Of a stretch of DNA of 64,000 bases, positions 1 through 62,359 are shown in pieces. Where the stretch lies: positions 56,854,001 through 56,918,000 of the forward strand of contig OX597814.1 of NCBI GenBank assembly GCA_951406725.2, in the 5' to 3' direction. The stretch comes from Octopus vulgaris (lineage: Eukaryota). The translations under genes and the position numbers were made by a program. Under the pieces are notes generated by a model, which had not been told where the DNA came from, did no database searches, and saw nothing but the letters and a program-made list of their open reading frames with translations. How positions within the stretch are numbered: position 1 is the first letter of the stretch; each line of letters opens with the position of its first letter.

Positions 1-369
<369 letters not shown>

Positions 370-4829: not shown

Positions 4830-5229
4830 ATTATCTCTATATTAACCACAAAGGTTTACATTAAGAACAATATTATCGACAGTACAGGACAAAACAAAGA
4901 ATGTGTGTGTGTGTGTGTATGTGTGTGAGCGTGTGTGTTGTGAAGCAAAACTAACAAAATAATAAAAAAAAGGAATCAACAATGAGTAATCCTCAATAGG
5001 GAGGAGACGTTCGAGGGCTGCTCATGGAAAAACCCCATAAAAAAACATGGCTACCCTGACTTTTGGGGCAGGTGATCTATTTTCCTTTCCTTTTTTCCAG
5101 CTACAGTCGTATGCTCAGGGCAGTCCCGTTAACTCGCACCGTTCTGGCCATTTTCACCCACCTTTCAGCAAACTGGCTAGAAGACAATACTTCCCCCTCT
5201 ACCCTTATTTTCCTTTTCAAGTGAAACTG

Positions 5230-7775: not shown

Positions 7776-8610
7776 GGATCTTTTCCTTTTGAACGGCACA
7801 TGTCAACACAATTTCTAGTTAACTAAACACTTTAAAACTTCGTATACTGGTAGAATGTGTCAAAATAAAACATTTTTTCTCTTGGCTTTCTTGAGAAAAT
7901 TGTAATTCGTTTGTTTAACGTAGTTTAATTTTTCAAATTTTAACCAATCAATTGCCTCTAATTGAGCTAAAATCACTTGCTGCGTCTAAAACTGAGACAA
8001 CATCCTGTCACTAACCCTAACCCTAACCATAACCCTAACCCTAACCCTAAATTTTAGCCTTTCGTATTTTTTTCTTAATTGTTAAATTAATTTAATTGTT
8101 ACGCGTGTGTCTAAAATTATTCGTTTTGTTTTTGTTTTGAGTTTTTGCTTTCGTTTTAGCCTTTCGTTATGTATACGTACTGAAAGCGTGTGTATAAAAT
8201 TATAGAATTATTTTGTTTGTTAATTGTTTAAATTATTTTCCATTGCTTTCATTTTAGCCTTTCGTTTTTTTTTTCTTAATTGTTATCCTTAAATTAATTT
8301 AACAATTAAGAAAAAAGAAACGAAAGGCTAAAATTTAGGGTTAGGGTGAGGGTGAGGGTTAGGGTTAGGGTTAGTGACAGGATGTTGTCTCAGTTTTAGA
8401 CGCAGCGAATGATTTTAGCTCAATTAGAGGCAATTGATTGGTTAAAATTCGAAAATTTAAACTACGTTAAACAAACGAATTACAATTTTCTCAAGAAAGC
8501 CAAGAGAAAAAAATGTTTTATTTTGACACATTCTACCAGTATACGAAGTTTTAAAGTGTTTAGTTGACTAGAAGTTGTGTTGGCATGTGCCGTTCAAACG
8601 GAAAAGATCC
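7776..8610. mobile_element. Foldback/MITE DNA transposon with ~320-bp TIRs, 8-bp TSD (GTTTATTT) and internal telomeric (TAACCC)n/(GGGTTA)n tracts
   Basis: Termini GGATCTTTTCC...GGAAAAGATCC; TSD at 7768-7775 and 8611-8618; arms ~7776-8094 and ~8289-8610. Inserted into a SINE. Confidence 0.92.
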
Positions 8611-20759: not shown

Positions 20760-23583
20760 ACCGTATGGAACCACTGGACCCTCGAATTAAATCCAGCAAT
20801 ACTCTTGCCATTCTAAACAGAATAAAAGCAGTATCAAATATTATTTTCCTAGATAGTTATCAGATAGAAAATAAATAGAATTGTATTCAATTTATTTACT
20901 GAATTTTAGATAAAATAGGAAAAATTATGAAAATATTCCTGTAAATTTGTGTGGTATTGCATTACCTTCAATCTGCTAGGTTATAGGGTGATGCAATATT
21001 TCTATGTGATGATGCAAGCAATTCTTATATTCAAATCCTCTTACTCAAGCAGCAGTAAGAACTTCATCTTGCAATATTGTGCGCCTGCTAAAAGGTCTTA
21101 CGATGATAGCATTGAAACATGTTTTACTATGTTTATGCGCCAGAATCTCCTTGAAGTTATTCGTAAATGGGCAAAAGTTGGAGATCAGGTGGTTTACAAA
21201 GATAAGTGGAAGGAAAATGATCACTCTGAACTAAAGAAATTTATTGGACTGATCATTCTTATAGGTGTTCATAAATCTAAACATGAAAATGTCACAGTTA
21301 TAGAGTCAGAAAGATAGCCGCCCACCATTAAACAAAATTATGAAGCGGGGAAGATTTCAATAGATTTTACAAGTATTACTTTTTGATGATGCTAGTGCAA
21401 GAAGAAAAAAAGAGAAGTGATGATAAATTGGAGTCCATAAGAGAAATATTTGAAATGTGCAGTCAGAATTTGCAAGATTGATATGTTCCAAGTTCATGCA
21501 TGAGTTGATGAAACTATTAGTTTTATTCAGAGGGCGTTGCTCATTCCAGGTATATATACCTTTCAAGCCAGGGAAATATGGAATCAAAATTTGAGTAATA
21601 TGCAATGGTGAAACATCTTATTCCTGGAAAATGCAAATCTACACTGGAAAAGACCCAGTAAAAGAGGAGAGACAAATCAAGGTTCAAGAGTTGTTGAACA
21701 CCTAGTAAAAGAACTTGAAAGTACTGGTCGGAATATAACTTGTGATAATTTTTTTTACAATTTTAGGATTGGTCCAGAAGCTGCTTAAGAAGAAAACTAC
21801 TTTAGTTGAACTTCCAAGTTCTTTCACAAATAGAAAAGAAAGAGAAATCATCAGCACAATATTTGGATTTGAAATGGATATTATGATCCTATCTTATTGT
21901 CCCAAGAAAAATTATGTAATTACACTTATGTGTTCAATGGACTCTCAGCCTTCAGTTGATTCAAAAAGTGCTGAAAAGAAACCTGAAGTTAATACATGTC
22001 ACAACAAAATAAAAGGAGGAGTAGATACCCTGGATAAGATGGTAGGGACATATAATTGCAAAAGAATGACTCGAAGATGGCCTATGATTATATTCTATAG
22101 GAGGAGGAGATCCTCCCCTTCGGTCATGAATGACCATGGGATTGCACCTAGAATGTTACTCTCCGAGGCACAAGTCCGGGCAAGGTTGTTTATGGAAGGC
22201 CAGCAGATGCCCATGCATACCAGATTCCCATCACCACACCACTGATGTTATCCAAGGGAAAAACAAAGGCCGATATAGCTTGGCATCATTGATGTCGCAA
22301 CTCATTTCTACAGCTGAGTGAACTGGAGCAACGAAATAAAGTGTCTTGCTCAAGAACACAACACGCAGCCCAGTCTGGGAATCGAACTCACAACCGCACG
22401 ATCGTAAGCTCGACGCTCTAACCACTGAACCATGCACCTACAACATGATTAATATAAGCGCAGTGAATGCTTTCATTGTTGCTAAACAGCTTCACTTGCA
22501 AAGTTTCAAGGATAAAAGAAGACAGTGCCTAATTCAGTAAGGAAAGGAACTTACTGGAGTTAATGCTAAACAAGAACAATCTTCTAGTTCCGCTAAGATT
22601 TCTCAACCAAACAAGAAAAGAAGACGATCTTCAACCTCATTTGAGACTCCTCAGCCAAAGAAAAAAGGATGATGTTCTTTGTGTGCCCCCCACCCCCCAA
22701 AAAACAGGAAAACTCGCACTATATGTAAGAATCGTAATATCCATGTTTGCCAAGAATATTCCAATGTTGTCTGCATTCACTGCCATGAATTGGATTGCAA
22801 TTAAGATGTGCTGTTGTTAGTGATTTTCTTGAATTTGTTTCGATAAATTTTCCGACTTTTTTTAAAAATCTACCTTTTTACGACTAGATAGACATTCGCT
22901 GAAATAAAAACTAATATTCAACAGGGATAGCTAAAAGTTGGTGGCCATAGCCAAATTTAAAAATAAAGTTGAAGAAAGCACCAACAACAGTGAAAGGTAC
23001 TAAAATCACTATCATCAGTGAAATTTTTACTTGTTTTATTCCTAAGCTGCTTTTTGGCAACTGGGTAGCTACTTTAGGTTTGAGTTACTGGTGTCGCTAA
23101 AGAAGAGAAATTATGACATTGTTTTAAGGTTCCTTTATGTAGATTTTTTAAAGAAGTAGATAGGGAAGGCTTTCTTCATACAAGCTTATTGGGAAGGACA
23201 GGCTCCGGTGTAGAGTGCCCAATAGCCGTGGCAGGAGGCCTTCAGTATTTGGGGGAAATTGTCACTTTTCCCAATAAGTCCAGCTATGATGACTCCTGCA
23301 CTGGCGAGCATCGCCTCTTCGCGGTACTTGTATCCCTCTTTACATTTTTTCAATGACTATTTCGATTGCTTATTTCGGCTCTTGTCTTCGTATTTTTTAA
23401 AACTATTCTGCCAATCTGCACTGAACACCTGCTCATATTGTATTATGTAAGTGACTGTACAGCATTTAACTGCGTCTCGTAGTGGGGTTCTGATTCACGA
23501 GTTACAGAGTTTTGATGAATGTAGAACCATCTCTTATCCAGTATTGTTCTCAGGTCAACTCTGACCCCGAGAAGTAGCAAAGG
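20760..23583 (+). mobile_element. Degenerate piggyBac transposon
   Basis: Relics ELKKFIGLIILIG, FRGRCSFQVYIPFKPGKYGIKI, TCDNFFT, KGGVDTLDKMV..RRWP and a Cys-rich C-terminus. Candidate 3' end ..GCAAAGG|TTAA at 23583; 5' end uncertain. Confidence 0.85.
22098..22438 (-). mobile_element. tRNA-derived SINE inserted in the piggyBac ORF
   Basis: Minus-strand head GGTGCATGGTTCAGTGGTTAGAGCG..GAGTTCGATTCC (A and B boxes), CTTGAGCAAGACAC core and (CTC)n tail. The piggyBac frame IIFY/NMINIS is split by it. Confidence 0.88.
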
Positions 23584-28722: not shown

Positions 28723-29400
28723 GAGTACAGGACACCAAAAAAACGTCGAACACAATGAGAAACGAAAACATAGACACAAACACAAGGAACTGGACATTTT
28801 TTTTAAACAAAAAAAAAGAGTACAGGACAAATAACACAAGGAAAACCCCCTTCTTCAGTCGCCATGGTTTCATCTACTCTACGTTTCGAAGGTGAAGGCG
28901 AGACGTATCTTCTATAAGAAACTTTCCTTCCTGCGAAAAGCAAATCAAATAAAATTTGAGATCTTTTTGCAGAGGCGTAAAATGGTAACAAAACCAGGAC
29001 AGTAACGACAGTACAAAATATAAGCAGTAAAAGACAGGACAAGGAAAATAACAAGACAAGAAGGGCTGTTAACGCCGAACGAAAAAAAGTATTACGAACG
29101 CTAAATTCTGTGAACGGCGAACGGAGCAAAGAGAATTGCCGTCCACACCTCAAGAAGGTACAGGCTAGAAAGACAGTAGCGGAGCTCTCGTCGCGGGTCA
29201 ACGATGGGAGGGAGGAGGAGGAGCAAGAGAAAGGGAGAGAAGAAAGGGGAATGGTTGTGAGGAAACCATGAAGAATGAGAGAGAGGGAGAGACAGTTAAG
29301 TAGAAGAAAAGGAAGTCAAAGAATGAGGGCTGAGAAAGGGATGGGACAGAAAGGTTAAGAGTGCGCATCAAAATTAATATCAAGAACAATCTTACTTAGA
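28723..29400 (-). mobile_element. Non-coding repeat carrying a rearranged hammerhead (probably retroelement-derived; related to 57770-58360)
   Basis: Shares terminal motifs (A)CAGGACA..AACG and GTAC(A/G)GGACAAA with 57790-57860; flanked by (TA/CA) and (GT)n tracts; purine-rich tract at the other end. Confidence 0.55.
28846..28907 (-). ncRNA. Hammerhead ribozyme with non-circularly permuted strand order (copy 1)
   Basis: Minus strand: UACGUC^UCGCC-uucaCCUUC-GAAACGUA-gaguagaugaaaccau-GGCGA-CUGAAGA-AGGGG. Stem III UACGU/ACGUA, stem I UCGCC/GGCGA, GUC site. Confidence 0.75.
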
Positions 29401-45232: not shown

Positions 45233-47087
45233 TTTCTTTATTGACCATAAAGGATTCACATTAAGTAAAAACATTTGGTAGACAGTTCAGGACAAAAAAA
45301 AGAATGTGTGTGTTGTTGTGAGGATTTTGCGTGTTAACAGGTTTAGCATAATGGGGAAAAATCCCCAAATATTAACTATGTATAATCCTCAATATGGAGG
45401 AGACGTTTGAGGGCTGCTCATGGAAAACCACCATAACATCATAGGCATCCTGACTTCTAGGCAGGCGCCTTTTCACATTTCCACTTCCCCAATTACAAAC
45501 GTATGCTCAGGGCAATGCAATTCACTCGCACTATTCTCGCCACTCTCAACCACCTTTCAGCAAACTTGCTACATTGCAACACTTCCCTCCGTATCTTTAC
45601 TTTTCTCTTGAAGTGAAACTTGAAGAAGTTGATCAGGGATTGGCCAAAGAGAGAAGTGTTTGTCTTCAGGCCTTTTAGTCTTGCCCACCATACAACCTCT
45701 TTCGCCATGGCCACTTAGCATATAAAGACAACTTACACTTCTAGGTTAAAGGAAAGCGGCGAGGAGTTCTTCACAATAGATTTAGTTGACAGCCGGATCC
45801 GTTCCACACGCTACAGCAGGTGTTCGGCACAAACCCACTGGTAAGCAATTCTCGGGCACCGGACGAGTTCATTCAGGACGGTTTCTTCGTCCTGCGCGCA
45901 TCTTGGACATGCCTGAATAGGTCATCTCGAACAGGCAAATCTCATCGGTAGCATTGTCAGGCCAGAGATTTTTGGAAGTTATCCAGTGGGCCCGAGCCAA
46001 AAGTTCTCCGGAAGAGAGCGGTTAGCTGATTTTCTACGACGCCCATGGTCATCCCAAGAACATCGTTGCACTTTCCCTCCACCTATCACGGTATCCGACT
46101 GGCTGAAGGCTGTGAGCGCTTGAAGACATCGTTACCTCGCCCCATTTTTGGTCTATCTGGAGATCTGGCCCAAACCAGATTTCGAGCAATTTAACCGGTT
46201 CGTACGTCCAGCGCCCAACACTGCAGTTGGACAGCATGGACTTACTTCTCCAGGTGCCGAGTCGCAAGCCCATCGACTTTTCCTGGTTAATCTTCGCTCC
46301 TGTTACCGCCTCGTAGTCCCTAAGAATGGTACAGATCATTTCGATGTGTTTATTTTCCAACACCACTACTGTGATGTCGTCGGCATATGCCAACAAACAT
46401 CTCCCACGTCCTAGGTCACGCGGGATGCCCCTTAATACCTCCAGCTTGTGTACTAGTGGCTCGAGAGTCAATAAGTACAAGAAGGATCAGAGGGGTCAAG
46501 CTTGGCGGACCGAGCGCATGGTGTTGAACGGTTCTAAGAGGTAATCGATCACTCTGACTATCGAACATTGTAGCGATCCAGCCACTCAATACAGCAGCCT
46601 TGAGGACCTCCCCCAAGTATAGATGGTTGACTCTATCGAAAGCTTTAGATTGATTAAAATTGGTCAGATTTTTTAGACACTTTCTCTATGGTGTACCGCA
46701 TGAGGTGGAGGTTGCCGTGGATGGATCTTTTCAGGATGGCGCGTGTCTGTGCCTTTTCTACCAGATCACAGACGACAAGAGCCGACCTCATAGCTAATTC
46801 AACAGAGTTATGGCCCTAAAGTTATCTGTACAGCCCCATTCCTGTTCGGGTCTTTTTTCAGCAACGTCACCGCTCCTCGGATCACAAAACTGGGGATTCT
46901 CCCTTTCTGTCGTCAATTACAGTAAACGTTTACCAAGAGGTCACCGAACAAGTTCTGGCTTGTAAGCGCAAAGCTCGTAGGGCAGACCATCTAGGCCAGG
47001 CAATTTATCCCTCGTCCAGCTAGCCAGTGCTTCCTATGTTTCAAAGGCTGATATTGGTCTTTTGCAGCGCTCCGCCTCTGTCGTCGA

Positions 47088-54229: not shown

Positions 54230-54490
54230 GCCCTTTATCTCCACGACAGAAGAAGGTATGACAAAGTCACAACTCAACCAAGAGCATGCTCTTCGTTTTC
54301 TCGACATCCGCGGTATTGCGCATCAAGAGTTCGTCCACCAGAGCCAGACCATCAATAAAGAGTTTTAATGCGACGTTTTGAAGAGTTCGAGGGAGGGAAG
54401 ACATTGAGCGAAAGCGATCGGATCTGTAGAACGGGGAGAACTGGATTCTTCACGACGACAATGCACACTCTCACTAAGCTCCTTTTAAGA
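54230..54490 (+). mobile_element. mariner (DD34D) transposase fragment
   Basis: SPRQKKV..FLDIRGIAHQEFVHQSQTINKEF..NWILHDDNAHSH. Confidence 0.8.
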
Positions 54491-54492
54491 AT

Positions 54493-56070
54493 GTGGATGT
54501 ATATGAACTAGGGCTCTTCCTGGCCCTGACGTGTACCAATGAATACCTGTCGCACAATAACCTTCTATATGCTTGTCCCACCCGTAACAAACGCGGTAGA
54601 CCACCTACCATTACCTCAGCATACAGGAAGACTCACTGTGAGCGCTGGCAGGGATGGATAAAGCCGGAATACCCACCTTCAAGTGCACACGACATTAGAA
54701 CCACCATCGCACATGCTATCGGTGTCAGCCTGAGATTTACGCTAAAAACACATATTTTTAAATTTGACAACAAACTGTATAGGCAAACGAAAGGCAGTGC
54801 TATTGGAGTGGGGATCGCCGGTGACGTTGCAAACCTCTTCGTGGTATGGTGGGACAAACATTTTAAACAGTGCCTAGCAAACCGTAACATCCACTTGGCT
54901 ATGTACTCTCGTTACGTCGACGACATTAACCTTGTTGTGAAATATAATACAGACACAGTTATGGGCCCTCTACCAAGTGAAGAACAGGTGATGACATCTA
55001 TACAACACATAGCTGACTCTATCCACAGCAGTATAAAATTTACCATAGACTACCTCTCTAAACACCCCAGTAAACGATTACCCATCCTAGATACTGAGCT
55101 ATGGATGGAAGATGCTATGGTTAATGGAACCATTAAACCCTGTATACTCCACTCACACTATCAGAAACCGATGGCTAATCCACTAGTAATCCGTAGTGAC
55201 TCAGCTATGTCGGATACTGCCAAACTCAACATCCTAGTGGCAGACTTAATTAGAGTAATGAGGAATGTATCACCACTATGCCAACCACAAGAACGACAAC
55301 AACACATCCAGCACTACATATTCCGAATGCAACGCTCCGGATACACACAAGACGATAGAGTCAGGGTGTACAAAAGAGCGAAAGCTAGATTCGAACGCAT
55401 TCTAAGGAACGACGAAAACGGTATATGCCCCCTATACCGCAACAAGTTCTGGAATAGGTTAGAGAGGGACACCAACAAAAGGATGAGAAACGTTACTTGG
55501 TACGATAACAGGAGATTTCACAGAGTGATGTTCGTTGACGCCACACCTAAGAACGAGCTAAGTAAGGCATTCAAGAAAATCCTGCGCACTACGGGCCTAA
55601 AAATTAAAGTTGTAGAAAAGACAGGTAGGACTACCAAATCGGCATTATGCAGATCATATCCATTTGATAGAATCACCTATCAAAGTAATTGTGCAGTATG
55701 TTCGACAAATCCACATGTAAATTGCAAAACCAAGGGCACTGTATACCAGATTAAGTGCCAGGAGGGAGCTTGCGCGACTAACCCAGAGTCATACATAGGT
55801 GAGACTTCTAGAAGCATCAATGATAGGTTCAAAGAACACCTGGACAACTACATTGAAAGGAAGCCAAACTCCATCTTCTACCAACATGCTGTAGACTGCC
55901 ACAAGGGATCCTTAGAGGAACTTAAGTTGAACATCCTATCAACACACCCCACCGATGCAATGTTGAGACAGGTCATAGAAGCTGTTTGTATACAAGAATA
56001 CAAACCTACTCTCAACCGAAAGTCCGAATGGAGTAACATCCAGATCCCATTTAGAAGGACTATTCTATAA
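54493..56070 (+). CDS. Penelope-like element (Neptune-type) RT plus GIY-YIG endonuclease, 5'-truncated but uninterrupted 525-aa frame
   Basis: YRQTKGSAIG, YSRYVDDI, LPILD, Cys-rich linker CAVC..C, GTVYQIKC..YIGETSR..RFKEH and E..I..P.LN. Confidence 0.9.
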   Translation: MDVYELGLFLALTCTNEYLSHNNLLYACPTRNKRGRPPTITSAYRKTHCERWQGWIKPEYPPSSAHDIRTTIAHAIGVSLRFTLKTHIFKFDNKLYRQTKGSAIGVGIAGDVANLFVVWWDKHFKQCLANRNIHLAMYSRYVDDINLVVKYNTDTVMGPLPSEEQVMTSIQHIADSIHSSIKFTIDYLSKHPSKRLPILDTELWMEDAMVNGTIKPCILHSHYQKPMANPLVIRSDSAMSDTAKLNILVADLIRVMRNVSPLCQPQERQQHIQHYIFRMQRSGYTQDDRVRVYKRAKARFERILRNDENGICPLYRNKFWNRLERDTNKRMRNVTWYDNRRFHRVMFVDATPKNELSKAFKKILRTTGLKIKVVEKTGRTTKSALCRSYPFDRITYQSNCAVCSTNPHVNCKTKGTVYQIKCQEGACATNPESYIGETSRSINDRFKEHLDNYIERKPNSIFYQHAVDCHKGSLEELKLNILSTHPTDAMLRQVIEAVCIQEYKPTLNRKSEWSNIQIPFRRTIL

Positions 56071-57605: not shown

Positions 57606-57769
57606 ATACATAGCAGCTATAACAGAACCCAAATACGGATCCCTAGATCCAGCCTTAGCTGTCATCTTGGTCGACCAGTTATATCACTAAGTGTACCTAT
57701 TCGTGAATTAAGCCCTTCATATTCTATATAAAAACTTCCTTTTGACAAGTTCTGCGTCGCGTTCAATTA

Positions 57770-58360
57770 TTAAGTTAAAAAATACACATTAAGAACAGGA
57801 CATCACCAACGAGTGAAAAATACATAAACATACAGCGAGAGAATAGTACGGGACAAAATACCAAAAGAAGTCTAACCCATCCTCAGTTGTCGACTGTGAT
57901 ATTACTCCCTGTTTCGTGTTTTTAACGACAATACAGGGAAACTCCATAAAATAACAGCATCTATTTTAAAAATATAAAATTTGTGGAGGGTCAGGGCTTC
58001 GAACTAACAGACGATACCAGAATGGGCATACGGAAGAAAACAATGGGCGAAGAGGGATATCAATGGCCGTTTGCCTAAGACGAATTGCAATGGGTAACGC
58101 TTGGTAGAAATTTTGAAAAGATATAGAATAGATAGTAGAAGAAAAAAATATCGAGAGGCGAAAGAAATGAAGTCCGACTGGCTGGCCGTCGAATCCAGGA
58201 AAGCAGGAGAGACAAGAAAAATGGCCTGTGGTTACGTGTGAGCAATAGGCAGAGGAGAATAGGGATAAGAAAGAGGGTGAGGGAAAGAAACAAAGGGAGT
58301 GAGGAAAGGGGAGGAGGAAAGGGAGTAAGAAGAAGGAAGAAGGAAAAGTGAAGAGAAGGG
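57770..58360 (-). mobile_element. Non-coding repeat carrying a rearranged hammerhead (related to 28723-29400)
   Basis: Shared terminal motifs and overall layout with 28723-29400. Confidence 0.55.
57874..57939 (-). ncRNA. Hammerhead ribozyme with non-circularly permuted strand order (copy 2)
   Basis: Minus strand: UCCCUGUA^UUGUCG-uuaaaaacac-GAAACAGGGA-guaauaucacagu-CGACAA-CUGAGGA-ugggu. Stem III 7 bp, stem I 6 bp, GUA site; stem II weak. Confidence 0.7.
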
Positions 58361-58710: not shown

Positions 58711-58978
58711 TCGGGGTGAGTACTTGATAATTATAAGCACCTGTGTATACCATTTGGTGGTGTAGGTGGTGGAGTAAATTGATCAATATAAAATAAAAAC
58801 ATGATGCGAAGGATTCAGCGGTACATATGTTTCGGGCATTTATTAGACAGATTTATAACAATGCATAATGTATGTCTGTGGCCTTCTTCAGCCGCGCACA
58901 ACAGCTTCCACAAGGACATGTGTTACATCAAAAATTCTTGGTTGGGGATGCAAATCCTCTCATTCGCGTACGACATAG

Positions 58979-60380
58979 GAGTAAACTAGAAAGAATTAGG
59001 AAAAAGATCAGGCTTTTTTTCAAATCCTTCAATCTTAAACTAGAATTTATGACCAAGACTAAAATAGTAAACTTCTTAGATGTTACGTTAGATTTGAATA
59101 AGCACCTTCACCACCCGTATAGGAAACCCGAAGAAACTACCAAATACATCCATACCTCTTCCAACCATCCACCCTGTATAATTAGCACCACGGTCCAAGC
59201 CATCTCAGACAGACTGACAAAACTATCCTCTAATAGAGAAATTTTCAATAATCATGCACAACACTACAACCAGGCTCTCTATAGTGCCGGGTATAACCAG
59301 AGAATATCATATGTAGACCACCCGGGAGCGTCCGTCGGCCATAAGACTCCCATTTATAATCGAACTCAGCACTCAACTCACACTAGCGATAATTCTAATT
59401 TAAACTCCAAACAACGTATAGGAAATAGACGAACTAATAGAATAGCACACAATAGTAACCCTCCCGACGAGAGCAATATAGATCCTATTAGGAGAAATAG
59501 AAGGGATAATAGTAGATTACGCAAATATATATGGTTCAACATACCTTACAACTTAGCAGTTAGGGGTAAGTTATGTAAGAGAATATTCTCTATAATTTCC
59601 AACAACTTCCCACCCACCCACAAGTATAGAAGTATCTTCTCCAACAAAACTATTAGGATTTCCTACTCTACCCTGCCCAACATGAGCTGCCACATAGCTA
59701 AACATAACTATATTAATATTAGAACAGCTAGATCAAGAACAAACCATAGCGACCAACAGAACCCCCCTCATCTAGACAGTAGACAATATAACCAGACTGG
59801 CAGCCATACTACCCAAACAGTTAGTAATAACACCCGCCAACACAACAGAGGAAATACTACACCCATCAACAACCAGGAGGATACCAACGCCCCCACTCGT
59901 ATTGCAACACCTCTGCCTGGGATTAGCAGCACACGACCGAATAATGCAAGGCAATGCAACTGCAGATGTGCATCAGAGTGCCCGCTGCAGGGCGCATGTA
60001 GGGCGAAAAATGTAATATATTCATGTGAGGTGAGTACTCAGTTTAACACACTCACCTATATTGGTTGCTCAACCTCCTGGAAATCCAGATACTACAACCA
60101 CCGGTCCTCGCTGAGACACAGACATAAGGCTAACAGCACCTCCCTCTCTAAAAGAATTTGGGAATTAAAAGACAAATGCATAGACTTCAAACTCAGATGG
60201 TCCATCATCGGATCAGCTGCACCTTATTTAAATAATAGAGCAGGATGCCAACTATGTTGTGTAGAACTCCTGAACATCTTGAAATTCAAAGACAAACACA
60301 ATCTTATTAACAAAAGGTCAGAGTTCAAACCATCCTGTATACATAAACTTATTAATACTTTCAAATACTACAAAGCTTAG
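58979..60380 (+). CDS. Naiad-type PLE protein C-terminal part (RT thumb and GIY-YIG); the N-terminus of the listed ORF from 58872 comes from the inverted pLTR and is not genuine
   Basis: VNFLDVTLDL..PYRKP..YIH..SNHPP, IWFNIPY, CNCR..CPL.G.C, VIY..TYIG..R..NH, CQLC..E and LINKRSE..C.H. Confidence 0.9.
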
Positions 60381-62281: not shown

Positions 62282-62359
62282 GCGGCTGAAGAAGGCCACA
62301 GACATACATTATGCATTGTTATAAATCTGTCTAATAAATGCCCGAAACATATGTACCGC
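62282..62359 (+). ncRNA. Type I hammerhead ribozyme in the pLTR of the Naiad-type element (inverted copy at ~58818-58895 on the minus strand)
   Basis: GCGG-CUGAAGA-AGGC..GCCC-GAAA-CAUAUG-UA^-CCGC; palindromic stem III as in PLE minimal hammerheads. Confidence 0.85.

Follow-up and report, generated by a model that had tools for sequence, protein, structure and literature searches.

The window, that is, the whole stretch of DNA analysed here (64,000 nucleotides of contig OX597814.1 of Octopus vulgaris), is repeat-rich animal DNA. On its minus strand lies a 5'-truncated, retrozyme-like repeat that begins at a TA/CA microsatellite, has a pyrimidine-rich 5' part and is non-coding (longest ATG open reading frame of 52 amino acids); its final ~45 nt are the start of the family 2 unit again, a tail of the type known from Penelope-like elements (PLEs). 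The repeat carries a hammerhead-like motif (copy 2), and a second motif of the same kind (copy 1) belongs to a young repeat of family 1 (Table 1). From 57939 to 57874 the minus strand reads as a first-pass annotation had described it, with sequence, strand, coordinates and the rearranged order of the cleavage-site (S), GAAA (G) and CUGANGA (C) blocks as claimed. In 5'-to-3' direction the complete order of the parts is stem II 5' strand, helix X, cleavage block, GAAA block, helix X, and stem I with CUGANGA.

Table 1. Positions of the two motif copies in the window and of the parts of copy 2.
Feature	Position	Strand	Remark
Retrozyme-like repeat, family 2, 5'-truncated, ~630 nt	57725..58357	-	78% identical on average over 65 blastn matches with loci of the family
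Stem II 5' strand (10.x), displaced	57956..57961	-	perfect 5-bp partner at the same position in other families
Helix X 5' strand (equals stem I-II interaction helix of SGC/CSG hammerheads)	57946..57955	-	partly broken in copy 2
GAA side, internal loop between helix X and stem III	57942..57945	-	GGA in copy 2; A in 53/55 family copies
Block S: stem III 5' strand, U16.1, H17 (A)	57932..57939	-	predicted cut 57932/57931
Stem I 5' strand, 6 bp	57926..57931	-	pairs with 57892-57887
Stem II 3' strand (11.x)	57916..57920	-	private G to A; G in 48/55 family copies
Block G: GAAA core, stem III 3' strand, AGUA side of internal loop	57903..57915	-	
Helix X 3' strand	57893..57902	-	
Stem I 3' strand and CUGAGGA core (57886-57880)	57880..57892	-	A9 (57880) is the last base of the fold
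Copy 1, family 1, young, ~815-nt tandem unit	28852..28930	-	passes full four-block descriptor; predicted cut 28902/28901

Several other elements were observed in the window. A young Penelope-like element lies at 58869-60380 on the plus strand (19672 first-look candidates, many of them 99% identical, with open reading frames that reach 842 amino acids and more), and it was discarded as a partner of the motif, having an ordinary type I hammerhead. Such a hammerhead, whose stem II has a long loop, whose stem III is palindromic and which falls below the Rfam gathering level, is seen at about 62282-62358 (plus strand), and an inverted copy lies near 58820-58895 (minus strand). A second Penelope-like ORF fragment of 530 amino acids with a C-terminal GIY-YIG domain is found at 54478-56070 (plus strand). 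Another repeat family (~45296-45420 and ~4893-5020, minus strand) has the downstream UUUGUCCUG motif in common and an apparent decayed type I hammerhead upstream of it. The window also holds two short telomere-like hexamer arrays in opposite orientation and 285 nt apart (8011-8050 and 8335-8374), a fragment of a piggyBac-like transposase (DDE_Tnp_1_7; 21739-22245, plus strand) and several LINE reverse transcriptase (RT) fragments between 32431 and 49466.

The core positions of the hammerhead (C3-U4-G5-A6-N7-G8-A9, G12-A13-A14, A15.1-U16.1 and H17) are present in copies 1 and 2 and in 19 representatives drawn from other loci (11 metagenomic and 8 genomic). The cleavage site of copy 2 is GUA (57934-57932, minus strand), with an A at H17 that is likewise found in 10 of 55 family 2 copies. 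The stems of copy 2 had been described as fully paired; this holds for the 6 bp of stem I and the 7 bp of stem III (57939-57933 with 57912-57906), but the outer C of stem III is a private change (U in 49/55 copies), so that part of the perfect pairing is accidental. Compared with the 55 family copies, further private changes affect the GAA loop, the 3' strand of stem II, the bases after the core and helix X, whose own core keeps four of five pairs (all five in 37 of the 55). Copy 2 has kept the core and stems I and III, yet it fails the four-block descriptor and a strict test of stem II. The first-pass annotation had rightly called its stem II poor, but the cause is a displaced upstream partner that lay outside the coordinates considered. 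The suspicion that this copy is dead is likely right: with stem II and helix X both altered by private changes, it is probably inactive, and its ability to cut is doubtful. The GAGUA common to both copies at the end of stem III is one side of an internal loop (AGUA/GAA) that lies between stem III and helix X, a helix absent from the first-pass annotation.

Both copies proved to be real, but the earlier view of them as two independent solutions has to be modified, since they are not solitary and belong to two large repeat families. Family 1 is the younger one, with 2637 first-look candidates at 94-98% identity, 1475 exact 17-mer matches against none in the control and a unit period of 815 nt (L037/L049); stem II of copy 1 pairs 28930-28926 with 28892-28888. 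Family 2 has 1061 first-look candidates, of which the 39 best others are 79-86% identical to copy 2, and a period of about 720 nt. In both families the open reading frames are shorter than 60 amino acids and the 5' end of the unit comes after its own 3' end, that is, the ends are circularly permuted. Copies of both often adjoin (TA)n, are 5'-truncated and occur as partial tandems and inversions, a combination reported as a signature of Penelope-like elements (PMC8557442, in part) and also of non-LTR retrozymes (PMC7229834; bioRxiv 10.64898/2026.07.22.740005, both in part). No consistent PLE ORF was found upstream of family 1 or family 2 copies. A conserved short motif at the unit start and tail (57725-57770 in the window; unit start in family 1) is common to the two families and is a candidate reverse-transcription start signal.

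Family 2 is an old family, in the majority of whose copies the first stem II pair is imperfect: the 10.x strand pairs either with one base bulged out or with A.C as its first pair. Only 3 of 55 copies retain the whole set of core, helix X, stems I and III and distal stem II, and most copies of the family are probably dead. At 16.2:15.2 the family shows a switch (G-C in 24 copies, A-U in 15, A.C in 10 and G.U in 3), which counts as one inherited event and not as 39. Folding of the retrozyme-like unit gave a z score of -1.85, with 2 of 20 shuffles as good. Assembled contigs of four runs, guessed to be RNA, cover the family without a back-joint, and such contigs cannot show ends or strand. Insertion ends at the 5' side fell just behind the predicted cut in 20 of 149 copies (16-nt bin; 11, 11, 7, 8, 4 and 8 in the next upstream bins), with the caveats that truncation falls with distance anyway, that the choice of anchors biases the count and that microsatellites blur the ends. 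The peak is not clear in family 1 alone; this weak excess is suggestive only and was not counted as evidence.

A chance match in AT-rich repeats might be considered, since repeat copies are non-independent and inflate counts from a single genome. Searched with a descriptor that combines stems I and III with a UH site, GAAA and CUGANGA (order S-G-C), the window yields copies 2 and 1 only (57932 and 28902), and neither strand of 150 dinucleotide shuffles gave a match; the control that the first-pass annotation had proposed thus returned no rearranged match of such quality. Moreover, unrelated stem sequences occur in 9 genomic clusters and 11 metagenomic loci, and the latter all carry the motif in sense and 3' of a Naiad ORF, which leaves chance with a negligible probability. 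The Rfam hammerhead families (types I-III) had no match in the window at gathering level. The four-block descriptor, which requires helix X, gave 84 distinct matches in 380 loci that had been enriched by searches, against none in the reversed control and none in shuffles of the window. Genome-wide, patterns of a GAAA block followed by the core (CGAAAC-20..32-CUGANGA-N-G) gave 4203 matches against 238 in the backwards control and 4462 against 255; a third pattern (4184 against 1395) takes in one or more unrelated families. The excess over the control amounts to at least 8,000 pattern matches in the 2.8-Gb genome. They sit in non-coding tandem retrozyme-like repeats of 700-820 nt and in the 3' UTRs of Naiad elements, and the further families A, B, D, E and H were found among them.

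According to the first-pass annotation, the three blocks form a plain rearranged hammerhead with stem II adjacent to CUGANGA. We analysed 104 distinct copies from 300 loci, which had been picked by stems I and III only, with stem II disregarded. In 78 of them the five bases that precede GAAA find a 5/5 Watson-Crick partner on the 5' side of the cut, at a distance of 21-29 nt (about 25 nt), against a shuffled expectation of 2.5 and none with a far-upstream segment, whereas the bases after CUGANGA give five Watson-Crick pairs in no copy at all. The comparison of homologues that had been proposed as a check of the adjacent stem II therefore speaks against this part of the earlier description; it is the displaced upstream partner that restores the helix. 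In favour of a plain type-SGC hammerhead, in which stem II would be built from the sequence that follows CUGANGA, either directly or after one extra base, one can cite a G-rich run after the core of families 1, 2 and A, which gives 3-5 pairs, mostly G.U, and one family 2 subtype in which five adjacent pairs are possible. However, the adjacent partner could provide the first stem II pair in just 3 of the 19 representatives (6 with an extra base), it is absent in family H and in all 11 metagenomic loci, and the adjacent strand of family 2 does not covary with position 11.2. As a general fold the plain SGC form is already contradicted by these counts, and we regard it as very improbable.

The displaced partners covary among families (GAAGG/CCUUC, GCACC/GGUGC, GACAC/GUGUC, GGCUG/CAGCC and GAACG/CGUUC). 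In the 19 representatives stem II is Watson-Crick paired in 94 of 95 cells, stem I is paired in 94/95 and stem III in 76/76; G10.1-C11.1 occurs in all 19, and each of the other four stem II positions shows two to four pair types. The stem II strand fits its own 3' strand in 5/5 positions in 18 of 19 representatives, and foreign strands in 10 of 292 trials. Directly after the displaced strand comes helix X, which pairs with the linker between stems III and I, connects stems I and II with a lengthened stem III and comprises 6-13 pairs in each of the 11 metagenomic loci. Since the descriptors partly required pairing and some of the loci are related, we place the weight on the variety of pair types, on strand, on position and on the controls; pair counts were taken from structure-anchored scripts, as cross-family MAFFT alignments misplace the stems. 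Covariation establishes the pairing of stems I, II, III and X in this order, with no stem II partner after A9. It spans the 9 genomic clusters and the 11 metagenomic Naiad loci and, together with the switch from G-C to A-U at 16.2:15.2, gives strong support to the earlier proposal that the structure is under selection. We also tried, and rejected, a helix (Y) that would close the fold by pairing the bases before G10.1 with those after A9 (mean duplex energy -4.7 against -5.1 in shuffled sequences, with 249 of 300 shuffles as good). Single-strand folding gives no preference for the pseudoknotted fold (z from -1.7 to +1.3), with a program that cannot form pseudoknots.

The linkage of the fold to Naiads is likewise an observation. 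In 19 of 30 loci (2 of them seeds) family D follows the C-terminus of an RT in sense, at a distance of 0.4-1.3 kb; the nearest protein, P0003 (49% over the query), has the Naiad order with an N-terminal GIY-YIG and a C-terminal RT domain. The family is nearly identical to published octopus Naiad sequences and makes up the 3' end of their consensus in the available part of the supplement of PMC8557442. No nucleotide similarity was detected between family D and families 1 and 2 outside the fold. In a scan of 79 metagenomic Naiad loci for all block orders (found by a search with an alignment of five Naiad proteins; 65 have a 3' flank of at least 250 nt), there were 11 matches, all of the split form, in sense and 3' of the ORF match, with the same layout and different, fully paired stems, and none in antisense. 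A CUGANGA of any kind occurs in the 3' flank of 15 of the 79 loci and is lacking in 64. Absent from the 3' flank of 54 of the 65 contigs, the motif occurs just in those loci that are most like P0003; a different RNA element may serve at the 3' end in other branches of Naiads. Naiad matches listed in the source genome were all broken or short in a stricter first look, no Naiad relatives were found on viral contigs, and a protein search with a 109-amino-acid fragment gave no match.

Naiads were reported to be without a canonical hammerhead, with only 'HHR_core' and 'HHR_half_core' flagged and one half core in an octopus element (PMC8557442, accessible sections). Among 17 of 54 Naiad consensus 3' ends that were read by eye, many of them available as short stretches only, the split form is seen in Naiad_Obim, Naiad_Ovul, Naiad_Plae (acanthocephalan), Naiad_EuTe (clam shrimp) and Naiad-2_Movir (box jelly) and, degenerate, in Naiad_Esco. 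Naiad_Smim (spider) and two nematode records (Craig 2021 File S5, in part) show by eye a plain CSG order with helix X, which would make them the first cases of Eckert's CSG type in animal genomes; the remaining eight passages gave no fit. The fold in Naiad 3' ends is likely to be the ribozyme reported as absent from them. A link to Neptune-type PLEs was rejected, as 30 GIY-YIG loci have no four-block motif downstream. Four loci 3' of Neptune-type GIY-YIG ORFs (L127, L130, L137 and L123) show a hammerhead-like motif in which the core reads UUGAUAA instead of CUGANGA and is followed by a short hairpin and GAAAC.

Taken from the sequences, the motif at the locus is likely a decayed hammerhead-type fold, of which thousands of copies exist in the genome and in Naiad 3' UTRs and of which the intact copies probably cut their own transcript. 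Helix X takes the position that the stem I-II interaction helix has in the validated SGC-1, and there is no closing helix at A9/G10.1, which implies that the ring of SGC/CSG hammerheads is opened inside the core; by its connectivity the layout is a circular permutation of these non-circular hammerheads, opened between A9 and G10.1. Stems I and II and helix X would form an SGC-like distal three-way junction, with a 3-nt link between stems I and II and links of 0-1 nt to helix X. The internal loop would bend helix X back to give a closed ring with its sole opening between A9 and G10.1, and hammerhead chemistry would take place at H17. This loop is AGUA/GAA in families 1, 2, B and E and, by eye, kink-turn-like (RNN-GA/GA) in families D and H. 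The kink-turn consensus consists of a 3-nt bulge followed by tandem G.A/A.G pairs, and sharp bends are not known for AGUA/GAA loops. With a loop that differs among families and is no recognised bend in several of them, closure of the ring may depend on dimerisation or on a protein. A viroid hammerhead tolerates an additional base at A9/G10.1. The descriptors for type SGC also tolerate one there (PMC10085705). With one cut per unit, tandem transcripts or pLTR read-through transcripts would be processed into RNA of unit length, a role already proposed for non-LTR retrozymes and for the type I hammerheads found in Penelope-like elements. Families 1 and 2 are non-autonomous units, probably copied in trans by a Penelope-like RT/GIY-YIG protein.

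Alternatively, the fold might be hammerhead-shaped and non-catalytic, serving as a recognition signal for the retroelement protein, or might cut only in trans as a dimer or with a protein. Closure of the ring is sterically demanding, the break at A9/G10.1 lies inside the predicted ribozyme and family 2 has spread despite its imperfect first stem II pair. The PLE hammerhead of PAc was dispensable for insertion in vitro and cut only with protein (PMC11167929, in part). On the other hand, all catalytic bases, A15.1-U16.1 and G10.1-C11.1 are kept in 19 of 19 representatives though the helix sequences have been replaced; the descriptors required the core, yet 11 of the 15 CUGANGA-bearing metagenomic flanks fit the whole fold, and related Naiads have the validated CSG order in the consensus sequences read by eye. 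We consider such a signal, or cleavage restricted to these modes, unlikely. The self-cleaving reading can be extended, with good though somewhat lower probability, to a ring-shaped, multiply pseudoknotted seventh hammerhead layout, opened in its core, active and widespread in animals, which would be the hidden ribozyme of Naiads and of retrozymes derived from them; with at least two opening points in Naiads (split and CSG), permutations may interconvert via tandem or circular RNA.

If this is true, non-circularly permuted hammerheads would move from metatranscriptomes to animal chromosomes, in thousands of copies, and the rule that stem II directly follows CUGANGA would be overturned, with many ribozymes having been missed by descriptors. 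The reported absence of hammerheads from Naiads, a clade that dominates many invertebrate genomes, would be explained, and the role of PLE ribozymes would become testable in this clade. The fold would also provide a compact scaffold with ends that leave the core, useful for RNA design, and would bear on the structural question of how SGC/CSG ribozymes connect helix X to stem III.

Among known systems, type I hammerheads of Penelope-like elements, reportedly described by Cervera and de la Pena in 2014 and by Lunse et al. in 2017, are said to lie also at the 3' end or in the pLTR; they differ by their circular (CGS) order, adjacent stem II and palindromic stem III. In the openly readable literature, with subscription papers outside this scope, we found no description of a layout split at A9/G10.1 or of non-circular hammerheads in Naiads, and the literature searched holds nothing on testing a break between A9 and G10.1. 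The link between A9 and G10.1 was assumed to be unbreakable by Eckert 2023 (PMC10085705), and the descriptors given in the accessible sections demand stem II at once after CUGAUGA(U)G, so that the split form could not be found with them. The PK hammerhead of PMC11300833 was considered and, from the available part of that paper, is unrelated.

Non-LTR retrozymes resemble families 1 and 2 in being non-coding, low in GC, arranged head-to-tail with one hammerhead per unit and tied to PLEs (PMC7229834; bioRxiv 10.64898/2026.07.22.740005, both in part), but they were defined and searched by type I hammerheads, whereas the units described here are 700-820 nt long, carry the rearranged form and are known from DNA. 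Naiad PLEs share (TA)n targets, 5' truncation, partial tandems, inversions and tails with the motif-bearing repeats (PMC8557442, in part); the complete rearranged fold is undescribed in the accessible sections of that work, and families 1 and 2 are non-coding, unlike Naiads. The closest relatives of the fold are the SGC/CSG hammerheads (PMC10085705), which have the same core, the same pseudoknotted S-then-G connectivity and a stem I-II link of 2-5 nt. In the available parts of this paper and its supplement they also have an extra helix that joins the distal ends of stems I and II, such that closure of the chain would give the same ring, and the validated SGC-1 has the same distal geometry. Type SGC differs in that its block C is intact, with the stem II 5' strand 0-2 nt after CUGANGA, an arrangement seen here in 0 of 104 copies and 0 of 11 metagenomic loci.
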